This document shows positions 14,429 through 62,825 of a stretch of 64,000 nucleotides of DNA, piece after piece. The stretch spans positions 928,001 to 992,000 of the forward strand of contig OZ251219.1 of assembly GCA_965240465.1 (NCBI GenBank), given 5' to 3'. The position numbers and the translations under genes are program-made. Under the pieces are notes generated by a model that ran no database searches, had not been told where the DNA came from, and saw only the letters and a list, made by a program, of their open reading frames with translations. How positions within the stretch are numbered: position 1 is the first letter of the stretch; each line of letters begins with the position of its first letter. The stretch is from a bacterium (GTDB taxonomy: Bacteria; SAR324; JACQKK01).

Positions 14429-14501
<73 letters not shown>

Positions 14502-47319: not shown

Positions 47320-48336
47320 TCAACAGGCATTAATAAAATGTTCTAGGTTGGTTTTGTGAGGGCTAATTTGAATGGAAATAACATCAAAGCGGGCTTGGAA
47401 TTTATCCCATAGATCGTGCTCAGTGAGGTAAAGTTCGCCCAGTTTGCGTAGCTGGGCTTGCTTGGCGGGGGTGACGGAAAGGCTGGGGTGAGTTAGATTA
47501 TTGGTACGTGTTTTAACTTCTACAAAGACTAAATACTCATCTTTTTCAGCTATTATATCTAGCTCGCCCTTGCCCAGTCGTACATTGCGGCCGTGAATGC
47601 GATATCCTTGGGAGAGCAGGTAGATTTCAGCATGGGATTCTCCCATTTTACCGATGCTTTGTCTCGGGTCAGCTGGCGATGATTGCGGTGATCGGGAAGC
47701 TGGCGATTTAGTCTCGCGGGATTGATTTTGCAAGCCAACAGGGATCTTCTTTAAGAAAGAGTTCCGATGAATAGGACAGGTTCCATGCCGAAGAATTGCC
47801 TGACGGTGAGCTGCGGTGGGGTATCCTTTATGCTGGGTAAAATTCCACTGCGGCCAATATTTATGAGCTAGGTGCATCAAGTGGTCGCGGGTGGTTTTGG
47901 CGATGATGGAAGCCGCTGCAATGGAATTACTGAGGTTGTCTCCCTTGATGATTGTTTCCCCAGGGCAGGGGATATCAGGAGATTGATTGCCATCTATCAG
48001 GGCATAATCTGGCAAAATGGATAAGCTGGATACAGCACGCTCCATAGCAAGCAGGGTAGCTCTGAGGATGTTAAGGCGGTCAATTTCTGCTGGTGAAGAG
48101 AGGCGTACCGACCAAGCTAGAGACTTTTGTTTGATTTCGCCTGCCAAGCGTTCTCGCTGAGAAGCGGAGATCTTTTTACTATCTGCTAAGGGTAGCGATG
48201 AATACCAATCGGGATGCAACACTACGGCGGCTGCCACTACCGGCCCGGCCAGGGGACCGCGTCCGGCTTCGTCTATGCCGGCTACTCGGGGTAGGTTTTT
48301 TTGCCAGAGGGATTTTTCTAGCTGGAAATCAGGCAT
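47320..48336 (-). CDS. rnhB: Ribonuclease HII fused to a YraN-family nuclease
   Basis: [29 protein letters not shown]; after a S/P linker GKMGE..A..YL, GELDIIA, FVEVKTR, RFDVI, HFINA. Confidence 0.93.
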
Positions 48337-50207: not shown

Positions 50208-50885
50208 TTAGACTTTCTCGGTGGATTCTTCTTTTACTTCTGTTTTTTCCTCAGGCTTTGCTTCAGTTTGTTCTTCGGTTCTTACTTTAGGTGGGGTGTC
50301 GGCTTTGGTTTCAGTAGCCTTGGTTTCGGTAGCTTTGGTTTCAGTAGCCTTGGTTTCGGTAGCTTTGGTTTCAGTAGCCTTGGTTTCGGTAGCTTTGGTT
50401 TCGGTAGCCTTGGTTTCAGTAGCCTTGGTTTCAGTAGCCTTGGTTTCGGTAGCTTTGGTTTCAGTAGCCTTGGTTTCAGTAGCCTTGGTTTCAGTAGCCT
50501 TGGTTTCAGTAGCCTTGGTTTCGGTAGCCTTGGTTTCGGTAGAGGTGGTTTCTTTAGTCTTGCTAGCTGCCGTGATAGAAGATTTATCAGGGGGAGCAGA
50601 TTTTGGTTTTCGTTTTTTGGTGGCAGGGGGCAGAATACGATCGTGCTTAATGCTATGTAGCTCTAGTAGTCGACTAACTCTCTGACTGGGCTGAGCACCG
50701 ACATCCATCCAGTATTTGGCACGCTCGGTATTGATTTGGCTCTTGTTATCTTCCAGCAGAGGATTGTAACTTCCCAGTCTTTCTATGAAGCGGCCATCTC
50801 TGGGTGCCGAACGCTCTTGTACTACTATGCGAAAGAATGGGCGACTTTTGCGTCCTCCTCGTGCCATCCGAATGCTTAACGACAT
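50208..50885 (-). CDS. rpsP: 30S ribosomal protein S16 with long repetitive C-terminal extension
   Basis: IRMARGG, PFFRIVV, PRDGRFIERLGSYNP, GAQPS; then (TETKA)16. Confidence 0.96.
   Translation of the reverse strand: MSLSIRMARGGRKSRPFFRIVVQERSAPRDGRFIERLGSYNPLLEDNKSQINTERAKYWMDVGAQPSQRVSRLLELHSIKHDRILPPATKKRKPKSAPPDKSSITAASKTKETTSTETKATETKATETKATETKATETKATETKATETKATETKATETKATETKATETKATETKATETKATETKATETKATETKADTPPKVRTEEQTEAKPEEKTEVKEESTEKV
50301..50540. repeat. 15-bp in-frame tandem repeat x16 in rpsP
   Basis: AGC(C/T)TTGGTTTC(A/G)GT units. Confidence 0.97.
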
Positions 50886-55991: not shown

Positions 55992-56951
55992 TTATTCAGG
56001 CATCAGTTCGGTTTTATCAATCCAGTTGGGGCTTGATTTTACTTGCAGCTCTAAGTGTACCCGGCAGCCAAGATGTTTTTGCAGAGCTAGTCGGGCAGAT
56101 TTGCCTATTTTTGCGATCATTCTTCCTTTATGTCCTATCAGGATGGCTTTCTGTGAATCCCGTCTGGTGTAAATCTTGGCAGAGATCCACATCAATGAAC
56201 CTCTTTTCTCCCAGTGTTCTATCTGCACCGTTGTTTCATGAGGTAGCTCTTGGCTCACAAATCTTAGCAATTGTTCGCGTATCAGCTCTCCCAGCTGGAC
56301 ATGATCCGATTGAGAAATAACTTGCTCCTCAGGAAACCATCGCGGACCCACCGGCAAACAGGATACCAACTCTTTTTTTAACTCCTCCACCCCCTCCCCT
56401 GTGAGTGCAGATACCAAAAAAATCCGCTTTACAAATAGCAACAACTCTAATTCCTGTCGGCATTGCCTTAAATTCTCAGCACTAGCGGCGTCTATTTTAT
56501 TTATCACTCCCCAAACTACCCCCCCCCCAGTACGCAGGAGGTTCTCTATTGCTCGCTGTTCCTTTCCCGCAACTCTTAGGGGATCCGCCACCAAAAGATG
56601 ATGCTCCGTCCCGCAAGCTGCTTGCTGTCTCTCCCTGCTCATAAACATCTCCAGCCGATTACGGGACTCTAGTCGCATCCCCGGGGTATCCGTCAAAACC
56701 AACTGATAACCCTCCCCATTGCAAATACCCCACCGCCTTCTCCTAGTGGTGTGAGGATGTCGAGATACAATGGCTACTTTCTCTCCCACCAAACGATTGC
56801 ATAAACTAGACTTGCCAACATTAGGACGACCCAATACGGATACTATCCCAGAACAAAATTCCTTTTCTTGAGATTCTGAATTCTGCTTATCGCTTGAAAC
56901 TGACTGCTTAAAGGGTGCTTCTGACATTGTCTCACTGGGCGATTGTCTCAC
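55992..56951 (-). CDS. era: GTPase Era (start uncertain; ATG near 56927 likely)
   Basis: GRPNVGKSS, DTPG, NKID, SA, KH domain SQKAILIG. Confidence 0.95.
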   Translation of the reverse strand: MRQSPSETMSEAPFKQSVSSDKQNSESQEKEFCSGIVSVLGRPNVGKSSLCNRLVGEKVAIVSRHPHTTRRRRWGICNGEGYQLVLTDTPGMRLESRNRLEMFMSRERQQAACGTEHHLLVADPLRVAGKEQRAIENLLRTGGGVVWGVINKIDAASAENLRQCRQELELLLFVKRIFLVSALTGEGVEELKKELVSCLPVGPRWFPEEQVISQSDHVQLGELIREQLLRFVSQELPHETTVQIEHWEKRGSLMWISAKIYTRRDSQKAILIGHKGRMIAKIGKSARLALQKHLGCRVHLELQVKSSPNWIDKTELMPE

Positions 56952-57003
56952 TGGGCGATTGTCTCACTGGGCAATTGTCTCATTTGGCAATTGTCTTATT
57001 GGG
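56926..57003. repeat. 16-bp tandem repeat, about 5 copies degrading rightwards, over the era start
   Basis: ATTGTCTCACTGGGCG units. Confidence 0.88.
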
Positions 57004-57224: not shown

Positions 57225-57410
57225 ATGGTGCTGAGATGGTGCTGAGATGGTGCTGAGATGGTGCTGAGATGGTGCTGAGATGGTGCTGAGATGGTGCTGA
57301 GATGGTGCTGAGATGGTGCTGAGATGGTGCTGAGATGGTGCTGAGATGGTGCTGAGATGGTGCTGAGATAGTACTTAGATGGTATGAGATAGCACTGAGA
57401 TAACACTGAA
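57225..57410. repeat. 11-bp tandem repeat x13 perfect (57225-57367) plus about 4 decayed copies, upstream of selA
   Basis: ATGGTGCTGAG units. Confidence 0.96.
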
Positions 57411-57441: not shown

Positions 57442-58944
57442 ATGGTTACTGCAATTAAGAGAGGCACAAGCAAAGCTGGCACAAGCTGCGATCAATCATT
57501 AGAAAGTCAGGTTAAGCTCTCGCCTTCTATGCTAGCGGTGTTGCCTTCGGTGCGGGAAGCGGAAGCGTATTTGGTTCAGCAAATTGGTGGGGAATCTGAG
57601 CAGATCAAGAGAATTCGTCCGCAGCTTGAGGTTGCCTTAGGGCAGTTAAGAGGTTCTCTGAGGCAAGATAAAGCGGTGGTTATTTCACGTCAGCAGATTT
57701 TGGAACAGCTGGCTTATAAGTTATCGTCGTCGCTGAGTGGACTGCGGGAGGTTATTAATGCTAGTGGAGTGGTGTTACACACCAATTTGGGTAGGGCTCC
57801 CTTGGGGAGTGAGTTATTTAGGCGTACTTTGGCGTGCTTATCGGGGGCTGTCAATTTGGAATATGACCTGCTGAAAGGCGAGCGTGGTTTTCGGGCTACG
57901 GGAGTGGAAGTTTTGCTAAGCCAGCTGGCTGGGGCTGAAGATGGGCTGGTATCTAATAACAATGCGGCGGCGGTTTTGCTCCTGCTGACTGCTTTAGCCT
58001 CTCAGGCTGAGGTGATAGTATCGCGAGGAGAGTTGGTGGAAATCGGGGGAGGGTTTCGGGTGCCTGAAATCATGCAGCAATCGGGGGTGAAGTTGGTGGA
58101 GGTAGGCACTACCAACCGTACTTGTCTAGGCGATTATGCCCAAGCGATTACTTCTCGTACTGTGGCATTACTGAAGGTGCATCGTTCTAATTTCACCATG
58201 GGCGGATTTGTGGAGGAAGTTCCCTTATCAGAGTTGGCTCGGCTGGCGAGTAAGCAGCGGGTTTCTTTGTGGTGCGATCAGGGCAGTGCCAGTTTTTACC
58301 GTTTTCGGCAGCCAGAGCTTAAGAAAATGGAAACCCCAATGGAGCTGCTGAAAATGGGAGTACAAGTACTCACCTTCAGTGCTGATAAATTGTTGGGTTC
58401 GGTGCAGGCGGGCTTGGTGGTAGGTGATAAAAAAAGCATTGCTCGGATGCGGGCACATCCGTTGTTTCGCAGTTTGCGTTGCGACAAGGTCAGGTTGGCA
58501 CTACTGGAGCAAACCCTGTTGGATAGCTTGTCCCCCAAGACCTTTCCCGAGAAAAATCCGACCACTGCTTTTTTGGAACGCACCCCAGATGAGCTACATT
58601 CCTTGGCAAAAGCCTTGTTGAACTTGCTAGGTCAGCTTGAGAAAAAAGGCTTACACTGCCAATTGCTCCAGACAGAAAGCTTGGTGGGAGCTGGTGCTGC
58701 CCCGGACATAAAACTTCCCAGTTTGGCGTTATCCCTAGTACTGAAAAACATGTCGGCAGATAAGCTCACGCAACGACTCCGCACTGCTCGGGTGCCGATC
58801 ATTGCTCGTCAGCAAAAAGGACAAGTATGGCTGGATATGCGTACTCTATCTGAGGCTCAATTACCCATCATCGCGGAAACCTTGACCAAGATCACCATGG
58901 ATTTTGCTCAATCCTTGACACCACCAGCAAAACTAAGCGACTAA
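57442..58944 (+). CDS. selA: L-seryl-tRNA(Sec) selenium transferase
   Basis: VINASGVVLHTNLGRAP, NNNAAAV, SRGELVEIGGGFR, EVGTTNRT, FSADKLLG. Confidence 0.96.
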   Translation: MVTAIKRGTSKAGTSCDQSLESQVKLSPSMLAVLPSVREAEAYLVQQIGGESEQIKRIRPQLEVALGQLRGSLRQDKAVVISRQQILEQLAYKLSSSLSGLREVINASGVVLHTNLGRAPLGSELFRRTLACLSGAVNLEYDLLKGERGFRATGVEVLLSQLAGAEDGLVSNNNAAAVLLLLTALASQAEVIVSRGELVEIGGGFRVPEIMQQSGVKLVEVGTTNRTCLGDYAQAITSRTVALLKVHRSNFTMGGFVEEVPLSELARLASKQRVSLWCDQGSASFYRFRQPELKKMETPMELLKMGVQVLTFSADKLLGSVQAGLVVGDKKSIARMRAHPLFRSLRCDKVRLALLEQTLLDSLSPKTFPEKNPTTAFLERTPDELHSLAKALLNLLGQLEKKGLHCQLLQTESLVGAGAAPDIKLPSLALSLVLKNMSADKLTQRLRTARVPIIARQQKGQVWLDMRTLSEAQLPIIAETLTKITMDFAQSLTPPAKLSD

Positions 58945-59960
58945 GATAACTCCTCCAGTAATTCCCAATAGTGCTTTAGTCGCCAATTTTCCAGATCGCC
59001 TTTTTCAGTAGCCTCACGCACCGCACAATTAGGCTCACCGCGATGCCAACAATCCTGAAAAGAGCACTGCCCCGCAAACTCACAAATCCCCGGATAGCAA
59101 AGCCTTAAATCAGCTGCCTTGATATCCTGATGTATAAATTCACGCATTCCGGGAGAATCAATTAAAAAGCCTCCTCCCTCCCGCAAGGGCAACAACTGAG
59201 ATGCACTGGTGGTATGACGACCACGTCCTCCAGATCCTACTTCTCCTACCCGACGCCGAACTCCACATAAAGCATTGCTAAGACTAGTCTTACCCGCTCC
59301 AGAAGGTCCCACTAAAATTGTGCAGCCTCCTTGTAGTAGCCTAGCTAATTCTGGCACTCCTTCTTCCTGTGTTATGACCGCTCTTAAAACTTGAAGCCCT
59401 AGTCGCCGATAAGGATTTGCTAATTCGTCAAATATACCTTGGGGGGTCAAATCTAATTTAGTCACGCATAACAAAGTTTGTAAATTTGCATGTCTGGCAG
59501 CAAGCCATAACCGGTCCACCAAGCGAGTAGAAAAAATCGGTGATGTAGCTGCGGCTACTATCAATACCCTCTCTATATTTGCTGCCAGCAATTGCGATTC
59601 AACTCGTCCATGATGACCCCCATGCTTAACCTTACCAACCCGACGGTGTAATTCACTTTTGCGAGGTAGCAGCTCTCTGACCAAACCTTTTTTACCCTCC
59701 CAAACCTCAAATTTGACTCGGTCTCCAACCACCAAAGTTTGTTTATTTAGGCCTCTTATTTTATCCCTATCACGCAGTCTGCCAACCAAGCGGCAAGTGT
59801 ACTCCTGATCGCTGTGCCATACCTTACACAATTCACCGTAACTGGATGATATCCATCCATCCCTTAGTTCCTTTTCGGCATGTTCTGCCAACTTCTCCTC
59901 CCCTTTTTTGGGATTATTCTCCATGCTACTCTGTCCAACAAAAATGTTCTTATCCACCAT
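58941..59960 (-). CDS. rsgA: Ribosome small subunit-dependent GTPase A
   Basis: VVGDRV, TKLD, GPSGAGKTS, GRHTT, DSPG, C..DC.H..EP.C. Confidence 0.95.
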   Translation of the reverse strand: MVDKNIFVGQSSMENNPKKGEEKLAEHAEKELRDGWISSSYGELCKVWHSDQEYTCRLVGRLRDRDKIRGLNKQTLVVGDRVKFEVWEGKKGLVRELLPRKSELHRRVGKVKHGGHHGRVESQLLAANIERVLIVAAATSPIFSTRLVDRLWLAARHANLQTLLCVTKLDLTPQGIFDELANPYRRLGLQVLRAVITQEEGVPELARLLQGGCTILVGPSGAGKTSLSNALCGVRRRVGEVGSGGRGRHTTSASQLLPLREGGGFLIDSPGMREFIHQDIKAADLRLCYPGICEFAGQCSFQDCWHRGEPNCAVREATEKGDLENWRLKHYWELLEELS

Positions 59961-60416
59961 GTGTCATTAGCACATTTCTTAATCGCTAGTCACTATAACC
60001 CTATATCTTACTGAAAAAATGATAAGATATATTCGCTCAATATATGCTAATTTAGATTAGTAAATAATCCTACACTAATGATAATAATGATAAGTTATAA
60101 CATTCATGAAATGAAGAACTATGCCCGCCTATGTTCTGCTTAAGGGGTGTTTTTGTTCCCTGCTGTAATTATAAGATTATTCATTTTATTCCTTGTATAT
60201 CAATAATTTATAAGATGGGTATCCTGTAAATCCGCTTTCCTAGCCGATCTGTATTTTTCTGCAAGTGGGAACAAAACATAGCCAAAAAATGAAAATCTCT
60301 TTAAGAACAAACGATAAGATATTTTTTATAAAAAACATCAAAATATGACTTGAAAATAAGAATATAATAGTGGCAGACTAAGTGCGATTGGATGTTACCT
60401 AAGGGCAGGGGTAGTA

Positions 60417-60666
60417 GGGGATGATAGGAGGGGGGATGATAGGAGGGGGGATGATAGGAGGGGGGATGATAGGAGGGGGGATGATAGGAGGGGGGATGGA
60501 AGGGTAGCAGGTAGGGGGGGAGATGACAGGGCGGGGGGATGATAGGAGGGGGGATGGAAGGGTAGCAGGTAGGGGGGGAGATGACAGGGCGGGGGGATGA
60601 TAGGAGGGGGGATGGAAGGGTAGCAGGTAGGGGGGGAGATGACAGGGCGGGGGGGATGATAGGAGG
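60417..60666. repeat. G-rich composite repeat: 15-bp units about x4 followed by about 58-bp units x3
   Basis: ATGATAGGAGGGGGG; ATGATAGGAGGGGGGATGGAAGGGTAGCAGGTAGGGGGGGAGATGACAGGGCGGGGGG. Confidence 0.92.
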
Positions 60667-60896
60667 CGGCAGGCAGGGAAGCCAAGCCGTCAAGATTTAG
60701 TAAGCGGATGTCGTCTGTGGAATACCAAGGAGGTAGCTCATAAGAGGAGCAAGAATGCCTGCGGCTGAAGATAGGCATCTAGGAGCGGTGGATGGGTACA
60801 TCCCCCGCGGAAAATTAGAGAGGGAGGAAGAGTAATGTGTGTTGACTGTTGGAAAATGTTTGTTAGTAGTTATTAGCCAAGTTTTTGTATTTATAG

Positions 60897-62825
60897 ATGT
60901 TTGTCTGCCAGGGTACAGCTAAGACCTTAAATGGTTTCAAGCGTATAAACGTGCATCATCATTTACAGGAAGCCCTAGGTGCTTGGCATGATCTATATGA
61001 GAAAAAGGGAGGGGACCCTATCGGAATGGAATCTGCCTTGAACAGCCAGTTGGAAAGCCAATTTGCCACTGAGGCGATGGGAAAATTAGCACTGAGTGGG
61101 CAAATGAGTTGCATGTTGCGGGTGCGTGATATTCAAAGCTTCGTGACTGAATGCTCCTTGCTGAGAGATATTAAAATTGAAGTACTGGAACATATTTTAC
61201 TGGAACAGAATCTATCAGCCCGCTGGGCTACGGTGCGTGATACCTTGGCTAGAAATGCCTCTATCTTGTGTGATATTAAACCTATGCCAGCCTTGATGAG
61301 GCTGGAAACCTGTAAACAGCAATTGTCCGACCCTTTGTCTGTTTTGGGAAAGTTGTTGGTGGCTACCGCCTTATTTAATTTTGATCAGGATAAAGAACAT
61401 CCTCCCTTAAACTGGCTGGTTCACTTCAAAAGCAAGGCTTTTCCCGAACACAAATGGCATCATCAGGTCAAGGAAATGGAAGATTGGAGACCATCCAACC
61501 CCTTGTGTCGCTGGGAGTACCTAGCCGCAGACTTGATGCACGTGTTGTTTAGAGAAGCACGCTCCCAACTGCCCGAGCATTCATCTTATCAGGGTTTTCA
61601 GACTACTAAGGACGAGCAAGGTTTTGCCGTCCTTCCCGCTAATAGCAGTCGCAAAACCTATTGTTTATTTCAGCCTTTGTCAAAGGATGAAAAGCAGTAC
61701 TGCCAGCCTTTGTCAAAGGATGAAAAGCAGGATTGCCAGCCTTTGTCAAAGGATGAAAAGCAGGATTGCCAGCTTTTAACAAAGGATGAAAAGCGGGATT
61801 GCCAGCTTTTAACAAAGGATGAAAAGCAGGATTGCCAGCTCCTGTCCAGGGATGAGGACTATTCCACCCCGCCAACTGGGAACAACCCAACAGGAGAAGT
61901 AACAACCACAGCAGAGCCTGTTGCCAAAGACGCGGCAAAACCGCAGCAAATAGAGCTCTTTCCTCTGAATGCTAGCGATTTCCTACCCCAACTTCATCGC
62001 TTTGGTCATCGTCGCTTAGGACCTCAAACACCCCGCCTCCTAGCCGTGCTTATGGAGCAACTGGCAGTTGCCGAGCCAGCCATACCGCTCACCATCTCGC
62101 TTGAGAAAATCAGTACTCGGGTAGCCAGTGCAAACGATACTCCCAAGAAACATTCCTCCCGTAGAAAAAATCTGGTGAAAATCATCAACTGGCTACAGCA
62201 AGAAGTCCTTATGCATCATGTGCTGGATAATACCGACAGCACCCAGCAATCCCTAAGCAAAGGAGGATTATTGAACGTCTTGCGTTGGGAAGGACCGCAA
62301 CACATATTTGTTCCTCAGGATACTCATGACTATAAAGGCAACTATCCCCACAACTATCCCCACAACTATCCCCACAACTATCCCCACAACCAGCAAGATG
62401 CACACCAAGTGAGAATCCTATTGGACAGCAGCTTCTTCAATCCTGATGGTAGCTGCATGGCAGCACTCTGGAGAGACTTGCCTTCGGCACTCTTTTCTCC
62501 CGATAACCAAACCCACCCCTATGCACCGGCTTTGTTCGCCTTCATGAGACAAAAATGGAATTCTCAATCCAGAAAAACATGGACTATTCACGTACAAACC
62601 CTGCTGGAACAATGCGGAATTTGGTACAGTCCCTCTGGTCGCTACCGTGCCTTGGAAACCCTCAAAAGAGACCTAAACTTCATGAAACAACAAGGCTGGT
62701 TGTATAAATGGCACATCACTGAATATCCCCAAAGACAAACCCTCCACCAAGAATGCATCCTCACTGCTTCGGTGCCTGCAATAATTTCTAAAACCTGGAA
62801 AAAATCGGCTTCTTACTATGGGTGA
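60897..62825 (+). CDS. Hypothetical protein with a putative Rep/TrfA-like tandem winged-helix C-terminal region
   Basis: 642-aa ORF; C-terminal HPYAPALFAF..WTIHVQTLLEQCG..LETLKRDLNFMKQQGWLYKWHI resembles a replication-initiator WH2; QQIELF motif. The ORF is confident, the function is tentative. Confidence 0.55.
   Translation: MFVCQGTAKTLNGFKRINVHHHLQEALGAWHDLYEKKGGDPIGMESALNSQLESQFATEAMGKLALSGQMSCMLRVRDIQSFVTECSLLRDIKIEVLEHILLEQNLSARWATVRDTLARNASILCDIKPMPALMRLETCKQQLSDPLSVLGKLLVATALFNFDQDKEHPPLNWLVHFKSKAFPEHKWHHQVKEMEDWRPSNPLCRWEYLAADLMHVLFREARSQLPEHSSYQGFQTTKDEQGFAVLPANSSRKTYCLFQPLSKDEKQYCQPLSKDEKQDCQPLSKDEKQDCQLLTKDEKRDCQLLTKDEKQDCQLLSRDEDYSTPPTGNNPTGEVTTTAEPVAKDAAKPQQIELFPLNASDFLPQLHRFGHRRLGPQTPRLLAVLMEQLAVAEPAIPLTISLEKISTRVASANDTPKKHSSRRKNLVKIINWLQQEVLMHHVLDNTDSTQQSLSKGGLLNVLRWEGPQHIFVPQDTHDYKGNYPHNYPHNYPHNYPHNQQDAHQVRILLDSSFFNPDGSCMAALWRDLPSALFSPDNQTHPYAPALFAFMRQKWNSQSRKTWTIHVQTLLEQCGIWYSPSGRYRALETLKRDLNFMKQQGWLYKWHITEYPQRQTLHQECILTASVPAIISKTWKKSASYYG
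61671..61858. repeat. 33-bp in-frame repeat x5.5 (QPLSKDEKQDC)
   Basis: CAGCCTTTGTCAAAGGATGAAAAGCAGGATTGC and variants. Confidence 0.93.
62339..62390. repeat. 12-bp in-frame repeat x4 (NYPH)
   Basis: CAACTATCCCCA x4. Confidence 0.93.

Follow-up and report, generated by a model that had tools for sequence, protein, structure and literature searches.

Plasmid-type Rep initiators have, to our knowledge, become fixed in a chromosome in essentially one case, that of RctB on the second chromosome of the Vibrionaceae. RctB controls a replicon of its own, whose origin holds arrays of short repeats, and is not known to us to carry a clamp-binding motif. Hda and other regulators of initiation carry such a motif on a flexible segment beside a folded domain, tying them to DNA-loaded clamps, and the iterons of the plasmid initiator TrfA adjoin DnaA boxes and an AT-rich region. 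Here we describe an open reading frame (ORF) found in a 64,000-nucleotide stretch of a SAR324 bacterial genome (GCA_965240465.1, contig OZ251219.1, positions 928,001 to 992,000; hereafter the window), which the original prediction, made from the sequence, had put forward as an orphan, domesticated Rep- or TrfA-like initiator with a possible adjacent origin. The ORF very probably belongs to a vertically kept chromosomal family whose members combine a Rep-type fold with a motif of the beta-clamp-binding type (Table 1).

Comparison with described systems

According to PMC8034659, TrfA of RK2 is plasmid-borne, acts on five iterons, and has both an additional N-terminal domain and a clamp-binding pentapeptide, QLSLF (residues 134–138), located in the N-terminal region ahead of its two winged-helix domains (WH1 and WH2). 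A clamp motif before WH1-WH2 and an extra N-terminal domain are likewise found in the ORF family. The two proteins differ in that they share no sequence similarity, and the 225-residue N-terminal domain of the ORF protein is unrelated to that of TrfA.

RctB from chromosome 2 of Vibrio cholerae (PDB 5tbf, 5ubf) was found to match the ORF protein structurally in domains 2–3 only, at 8–9% identity, and PDB sequence searches with the ORF returned no RctB chain. In PMC8034659, RctB is given an extra C-terminal domain 4, whereas the ORF protein stops after WH2; neither the sequence homology nor the four-domain architecture of the RctB family was found. Also unlike RctB, the ORF shares the sole chromosome with a separate dnaA and oriC and is accompanied by no conserved iteron array. 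RepE from mini-F and Pi from R6K (PDB 1rep, 2z9o, 2nra) are plasmid proteins of 250–300 residues that lack the N-terminal domain, the linker and the clamp motif; they have iterons, whereas none was found at the ORF locus, and the Pfam model Rep_3 does not score the ORF. Hda, an AAA+ protein, lacks winged helices and is related to the ORF in neither sequence nor fold. Relatives of the host genome carry short DnaA-like frames of 282–299 residues, one of which (G065; 282 aa, 24 bits) is located about 5 kb upstream of the Rep-like gene.

A literature search on SAR324 replication initiators and on chromosomal winged-helix, clamp-motif initiators returned no description of the Rep-like family. Judged by that search and by the family libraries, the family, its N-terminal domain and its core chromosomal status across most of the phylum are new; the fold and the motif are already known. 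A protein with a predicted Rep fold and a conserved clamp motif appears to have been retained across most of SAR324 as a core gene in single copy, beside DnaA and oriC. Should the ORF prove to act in replication control, a plasmid initiator would have been domesticated a second time, independently of RctB, in a different architecture that includes a new N-terminal domain, and there would be a concrete point of entry into the replication control of a widespread phylum. In a more modest reading it is a new protein family, now labelled "hypothetical", with a testable partner (DnaN) and candidate DNA sites (the CGCCACA boxes described below).

Predicted fold of the ORF protein

AlphaFold2, run with a 50-row alignment, gave a full-length model (mean pLDDT 81.2) comprising three ordered blocks and two disordered stretches, residues 228–346 and 482–496, which are the sites of in-frame repeats in this genome. 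The 33-bp insertion in the linker is missing from all 49 other alignment rows, and the insertion of NYPH units is likewise seen in the copy of this genome only. The WH2 part of the model has pLDDT mostly >90, and the protein ends 13 residues past it.

When the model was compared to the PDB with Foldseek, two of 399 matches reached E ≤ 0.001, namely RctB domains 2–3 (5tbf_A, 2.6e-4) and Pi bound to iteron DNA (2nra_C, 7.7e-4). Dozens of RepE54 entries came next, together with 8ac8 and 8aan, both titled "Rep protein", and no entry titled TrfA was found among the rows listed. The first 46 rows were all initiators. WH1 and WH2 aligned jointly to RepE54, Pi and RctB domains 2–3, the match spanning both domains in an initiator-specific arrangement. 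The tandem WH1-WH2 fold of iteron-plasmid Rep initiators was thereby found in the predicted model, and the predicted fold of the C-terminal half is that of the winged-helix pair in initiators of the RepE/Pi/RctB type. The stretches that had earlier been picked out as winged-helix-like are helices and strands of WH1 (378–435) and WH2 (543–608) in the model, and the fold search against Rep proteins that had been proposed as a check placed initiators at the top of the list. Conserved basic positions were found in WH1 (R368, R372, R373, R380 and position 441), and the predicted recognition helix of WH2 (579–598) contains conserved R582, Y583, R584 and K590. For residues 1–225 no recognisable relative or fold was found, in keeping with the novel N-terminal domain that had been proposed.

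Sequence-based searches were negative throughout. The 642-residue protein matched no Pfam family at E ≤ 10, Pfam matches of 50 family members included no Rep family, and NCBIfam gave only a chance match to RarA (E 0.22). A PDB search by sequence with the ORF found no match, and none was given by a profile search of the PDB (E ≤ 10), by PHROGs or by tblastn with the C-terminal half against 72,556 plasmids. Alignment of the family profile to Rep_3 with hhalign, for which the Rep_3 query was taken from the Rep_3 gene of a SAR324 genome, gave a probability of 0.1%, a weak test given the shallow template (5 sequences). Canonical Rep_3 (PF01051) genes were found in 6 of 88 SAR324 genomes and in none of the 18 genomes of family f1. 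These Rep_3 genes (L061–L066) are mostly located on small contigs, two contain in-frame TGA stops, and they are unrelated in sequence to the ORF family; presumably they represent plasmids or mobile elements.

A conserved motif of the clamp-binding type

The hexapeptide QQIELF, earlier noted at 61944–61961 as a clamp-binding-like motif, was found there and corresponds to residues 350–355. In the family it follows the consensus Q-[LM]-x-L-[FLI]-P, directly N-terminal to WH1 and at the end of an otherwise unconserved linker of low pLDDT. Among 81 homologues, Q351 is conserved in 71, L/M at 352 in 67, L354 in 70, L/F/I at 355 in 75 and P356 in 64. Some homologues carry QLSLF or QLDLF at this position and so match exactly the QL[SD]LF form of the clamp-binding consensus, which we take to be of the QL[SD]LF or QxxLxF type. 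The proposed clamp motif is thus conserved in the family, and it directly precedes WH1 as QLSLF does in TrfA, according to the layout given in PMC8034659.

Prediction of a complex between ORF residues 336–375 and the DnaN of the same genome (393 aa, from the dnaA-dnaN-recF row), another check that had been proposed, gave scores of 0.70, 0.70 and 0.69 in three runs, compared to 0.00 for the best of three controls; the mark applied is reached by 116 of 157 solved complexes and by 2 of 215 mismatched pairs. The runs share at least 75% of contacts, with pLDDT 47–48 for the ORF fragment. Residues 348–355 were predicted to contact DnaN residues 195–200, 343–345, 369–371 and 385–392, the C-terminal residues of the clamp included, and the motif is predicted to dock in the canonical hydrophobic clamp pocket of DnaN.

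An ordinary transcription factor or nucleoid protein with a Rep-like double winged helix, using QxxLFP for something else, such as a contact within or between subunits, would offer another account of these features. We consider it unlikely, as the fold match covers both winged helices in the arrangement specific to initiators, and the motif is conserved in a linker that is otherwise not and is predicted to dock in the clamp pocket where the controls score nothing.

Distribution and inheritance

The ORF is present in a single copy in its genome, at 988.9 kb of a single contig of 1,599,138 bp, and its start lines up with those of its homologues (MFVCQG / MFVCEG / MxxFxG). A phmmer search against 1.84 billion representative proteins returned 78 homologues at E ≤ 0.001, 32 of them at ≤ 1e-30. 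Where their sources give a name it is "hypothetical protein", none has a precomputed Pfam domain, and the homologue-bearing SAR324 records found were metagenome-assembled only. With a profile built from 50 members, one full-length, stop-free copy was identified in 42 of 88 SAR324 genomes, and the gene is accordingly no orphan, as the original prediction had called it. All genomes in families f1 (18/18), f3 (2/2), f4 (1/1), f5 (1/1) and f6 (1/1) and nearly all in f7 (18/19) encode it. It is absent from family f2 (0/45), many genomes of which are >90% complete.

In a quick maximum-likelihood tree of 38 copies (row L053 and the duplicates L022–L025 were left out), the f1 sequences formed one clade with support 100, and the labels of six families required five changes, the minimum possible. 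Branches were long and sequence evolution was fast. The pattern is one of vertical descent from an early ancestor of SAR324, f2 having lost the gene or diverged past recognition. A chromosomal gene passed on in this way fits the domestication that had been suggested.

The upstream region

The DNA preceding the ORF is AT-rich, with a GC content of 0.285 at 59961–60370 compared to about 0.46 for the genome, and constitutes one of 44 genome regions with a 400-bp window at GC ≤ 0.32 (1.4% of windows). An AT-rich region beside the gene, as is typical of Rep initiators, was also found in relatives. Of the 15 f1 loci that extend upstream of the gene, each 5–14 kb long, 13 have their GC minimum (in 200-bp windows) 230–1,060 nt ahead of the start, and in the other two the upstream trough is a near-equal second minimum. 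In several f1 genomes with 0.59–0.66 GC, this trough falls to 0.24–0.30. Outside f1 the pattern was mixed.

An upstream module of ~310 nt could be aligned in ten f1 genomes. It contains a box, GCGCCACA(T/A), at −589 to −685 (in one genome, −831); some 110 nt further downstream CGCCACA recurs, the spacer in between being unconserved and constant in length. The boxes are followed by an inverted repeat (ATATCAA...TTGATATG) and by GAATAATATTA, TGAGAACAG..AAG, TTTTTTGTTTGGAA and TGTGATTGATTAC. When an nhmmer model was built from these ten, five other f1 genomes also proved to have the module ahead of the gene (E 2e-25 to 5e-5), giving 15 of 18 in f1; BLAST with the module was too insensitive, finding it in 2 of 19 family genomes, and nhmmer performed better. 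The contig of G002 has no DNA upstream of the gene. In the window, only three short blocks shared with the relatives were recognised by eye, TATATCAA (60196–60203), TAAGAACAAACGATAAGA (60302–60319) and CTTGAAAAT (60349–60357). The 13-nt box occurs 2–4 times per genome in five genomes, compared to 0–4 times for the reversed control, and this low number argues for a locus-specific site rather than a regulon motif.

A non-coding RNA encoded by the module was considered and rejected: neither the window nor six relatives' loci gave an Rfam family for it, and RNAalifold found no consensus structure on either strand, the latter favouring an element that acts at the DNA level. As the AT-rich tract is conserved at the locus, a cis-acting DNA element beside the gene is plausible. 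A sigma-70-like site was noted on the minus strand (60203–60176), facing rsgA and using the conserved TATCAA block; read on the other strand, TATATCAA gives a TTGATA −35 hexamer.

The boxes were also considered as DnaA boxes and discarded, since in six genomes GCGCCACA was not enriched beside dnaA, except in G008 (two copies upstream of dnaA, n=1). In that genome the two GCGCCACA boxes are 139 bp apart and flank a (GGGGCAACT)n repeat upstream of dnaA (L057, 5904–6050). G008 is also the sole f1 genome whose Rep-like gene has upstream DNA without such boxes, a single case that could be due to chance.

The G-rich array and genome-wide repeats

Between the AT-rich tract and the ORF lies a G-rich tandem array with a GC skew of +0.89, the unit of which occurs nowhere else in the genome. 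Tandem arrays, 645 after merging, make up 105 kb (6.6%) of the genome, and the array in question belongs to a set of 20 with a length of 100 bp or more, a strong strand skew and a high GC content. In the sister species (G001), an unrelated 14-bp array occupies the same position, and the gene is closely followed by a further four arrays. Upstream of the gene, eight relatives belonging to other genera showed neither a tandem array nor iteron-like direct repeats (at least three copies of 17–22 bp); the upstream regions of these eight contained 0–9 repeat families each, mostly of two copies, plus one 3 x 14-nt tandem. The iteron array of Rep initiators was therefore not found, the arrays of this genome and of G001 having periods of 15 and 14 bp and being mutually unrelated. 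The reading of the G-rich repeats as iterons had to be given up on these grounds: the array is a lineage-specific repeat expansion of the kind common in this genome. Conspicuous as they are, the G-rich repeats, like the local skew switch treated below, are by-products of a reduced, repeat-rich genome, and a false lead is thereby removed. Same-family relatives have genomes of 2.3–5.2 Mb with about 0.6 GC, from which the genome of the host genus is judged to be reduced and of lower GC; the locus of the closest homologue lies on a 1.72-Mb chromosome.

Genome-wide, array periods of 12–18 bp are commonest, and many arrays are intergenic; some lie within genes, in frame. To the right of the skew minimum, the plus strand carries a weak excess of G-rich over C-rich short-period arrays (125 vs 64), and to its left the balance is reversed (54 vs 73). 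A C-rich array of 58-bp period x 6.6 is located at 607402–607788 (GC 0.60, skew −0.84), about 1 kb from dnaA; it, too, is among the 20 long, skewed arrays, and its period length is that of the G-rich array beside the ORF and its sequence is different. Further arrays in the window are found at 56926–56996 and 57225–57401.

Proposed mode of action and points against it

The ORF protein has three parts: a lineage-specific N-terminal domain, a linker ending in Q-[LM]-x-L-[FLI]-P, and the predicted tandem WH1-WH2 module. We propose that a plasmid-type Rep protein was domesticated onto the chromosome by a SAR324 ancestor. WH2 and WH1 would bind particular sequences, most likely within the conserved AT-rich DNA that precedes the gene itself, where the two CGCCACA boxes ~110 bp apart and the inverted repeat, present in most family members, suggest Rep-like autoregulation. 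The linker motif would tether the protein to DNA-loaded beta clamps and so couple its action to ongoing replication. On balance we hold this whole mechanism, a domesticated Rep-like, clamp-tethered and sequence-specific DNA-binding protein, to be somewhat likely.

Several points weigh against this proposal. No sequence-level tie to Rep_3, TrfA or RctB was found, so that kinship with plasmid initiators is one of fold and domain order only. DNA binding by the protein, and the role of the upstream boxes as its sites, are things that we infer. As solved clamp-peptide complexes are numerous, the DnaN score may reflect likeness to these rather than binding, and the pLDDT of the ORF fragment is <50. 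The upstream module was not detected by nhmmer in this genome, in its sister G001, in G008 or at loci outside f1. Part of the module may, from its sequence, be the divergent promoter of rsgA; f1 genomes in which a gene other than rsgA lies upstream nevertheless keep the module beside the Rep-like gene. Finally, absence from all 45 genomes of f2 means that the gene is dispensable in at least that lineage.

The question of an origin

A broader possibility is that an ancient plasmid-derived module, comprising the Rep-fold protein with its clamp motif and an AT-rich cis element, still acts in chromosome replication beside DnaA and oriC, either as a second origin (conditional or backup) or as a clamp-coupled checkpoint sensing the passage of forks at a defined site on the chromosome, for which the sensing of crtS by RctB in Vibrio provides a model. 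We think it improbable that this is so; if it were, the N-terminal domain would be a new module interacting with the replisome or with DnaA.

In its stricter form, the gene and its AT-rich region would be a working second, Rep-dependent origin at which the protein melts the tract and recruits the replisome via the clamp motif, like TrfA at oriV. The Rep fold and the clamp motif, the deep AT trough described above, the conserved boxes at fixed spacing, and the location of the gene only about 11 kb from dnaA in a complete 2.4-Mb f3 genome (G064; L058, G064:C1:2016637-2029793) would suit such an origin. The distance to dnaA, however, varies, with 384 kb in this genome, about 387 kb in that of the sister species and 573 kb in G065. 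No array of at least three iteron-like repeats was found in eight relatives, and the arrays of the host genus, with their 14–15-bp periods and no relation between sister species, are part of a genome-wide expansion. DnaA and oriC are intact: dnaA (PF00308, 87 bits) is located at 605.6 kb within dnaA-dnaN-recF (603–606 kb), coinciding with the minimum of the cumulative GC skew of the genome at about 600 kb (maximum about 1,530 kb). Boxes matching TTATCCACA with at most one mismatch, the consensus of E. coli-type DnaA boxes as we take it to be and possibly not that of SAR324, number 4 in 14.7 kb upstream compared to 3 in 15 kb of coding control, and with this consensus no clear cluster was found even beside dnaA.

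The skew switch pointed out in the original prediction exists on the local scale (−0.39 at 59700, +0.78 at 60300) but fails as the mark of an origin, since the cumulative skew at 2-kb resolution displays a dip of a few kb at ~988 kb and no sustained inflection. The divergently transcribed genes and the G-rich array produce the switch, which is not a replichore boundary. AT-richness is the only origin-type feature found at the locus, and the ORF protein is not the main chromosomal initiator. With dnaA-dnaN-recF and the global skew minimum about 384 kb away, no iterons found and no enrichment of E. coli-type DnaA boxes, the adjacent origin that had been envisaged is not supported, and we rate a second origin as rather improbable.

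A replisome-associated factor working at forks or loaded clamps genome-wide, in repair, restart or DnaA control, and with no special tie to its own upstream DNA, is a further alternative. It would agree with the clamp motif, with conservation being highest in the N-terminal domain rather than in the DNA-binding half, and with the module going undetected outside f1 although the protein is conserved there. Against it, the Rep-type winged-helix pair is a sequence-specific DNA binder in all characterised relatives, and within f1 the module accompanies the gene even when a different gene lies upstream, which makes this alternative distinctly improbable. A decaying remnant of an integrated plasmid or mobile element without present function, to which the Rep-like fold, the long branches of a fast-evolving sequence and the repeat insertions inside the ORF might point, has next to no likelihood and is already contradicted by the conservation pattern, with full-length, stop-free frames in all 42 genomes, a tree congruent with taxonomy, conserved housekeeping synteny with no integrase or transposase nearby, and repeats that are in frame and confined to disordered loops.

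Locus context

The features of the locus are compiled in Table 1; the ORF, the AT-rich tract, the G-rich repeat and the repeat-filled linker that had been listed before were each found in the sequence.

Table 1 Positions of the ORF, its predicted domains and flanking features in the window.
Feature	Position	Strand	Remarks
rsgA, ribosome small-subunit GTPase	58941..59960	-	Pfam RsgA_GTPase 2.7e-39; divergent from ORF
AT-rich intergenic tract, rsgA to ORF	59961..60400	.	Position of the conserved upstream module of relatives
G-rich tandem array	60417..60666	+	58-bp period x 4.3, 92% matches; 15-bp unit from 60417
ORF, 642 aa	60897..62825	+	Member of a SAR324-restricted, single-copy, unannotated protein family
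N-terminal alpha/beta domain, residues 1-225	60897..61571	+	Best-conserved part of the protein
Length-variable linker, residues 226-349	61572..61943	+	pLDDT <50 over 228-247 and 268-346
In-frame 33-bp x 5.1 repeat, LSKDEKQDCQP-type units	61671-61839	+	TRF; inside the linker
Beta-clamp-binding-type motif QQIELFP, residues 350-356	61944..61964	+	Conservation, complex prediction
Predicted WH1, about residues 358-470	61968..62306	+	pLDDT mostly >90
In-frame 12-bp x 4.3 repeat, NYPH units	62339..62390	+	TRF; WH1-WH2 loop; pLDDT <50 at 482-496
Predicted WH2, about residues 500-629	62394..62783	+	AlphaFold2, fold alignment

The region between rsgA and the ORF measures 936 bp and consists of the AT-rich tract and the G-rich array; the window ends 1.2 kb downstream of the ORF. 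When 18 ORFs at 42.5–64 kb were scanned with Pfam, 16 gave a match, all to housekeeping genes (including RsgA, SelA, Era, S20, L3, HisRS, TrmD, RimM, S16, RNase HII and CN hydrolase), and no integrase or transposase was found among the 18, in agreement with what the original prediction had said of the surroundings. The gene is thus situated among housekeeping genes on a single 1.6-Mb contig, and the plasmid or mobile carriage of Rep initiators was not found. The proposed comparison of synteny revealed shared neighbours in relatives: RsgA-like divergent ORFs lie upstream in L009, L011, L014 and L020, and a short-chain dehydrogenase (SDR), an HflX-like GTPase or a CN hydrolase recurs downstream, both judged by eye from N-terminal sequences, the window's own genes excepted.

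Two minus-strand ORFs over the G-rich array, 60301–60693 and 60395–60778 (127–130 aa), encode proline-rich repeats (HPPSY and similar) and are almost certainly repeat artefacts, not genes. The only Rfam content of the window is a tRNA at 14429–14501. Two ribosomal proteins encoded on the minus strand have long low-complexity C-terminal extensions: L3 (54642–55433), with a tail rich in P/A/S/T, and S16 (50208–50885), which has 225 residues with the Pfam domain at residues 9–67. RNase HII (residues 19–195) was found fused to a UPF0102 (YraN-like) domain (232–322) in one frame of 338 residues at 47320–48336 on the minus strand.

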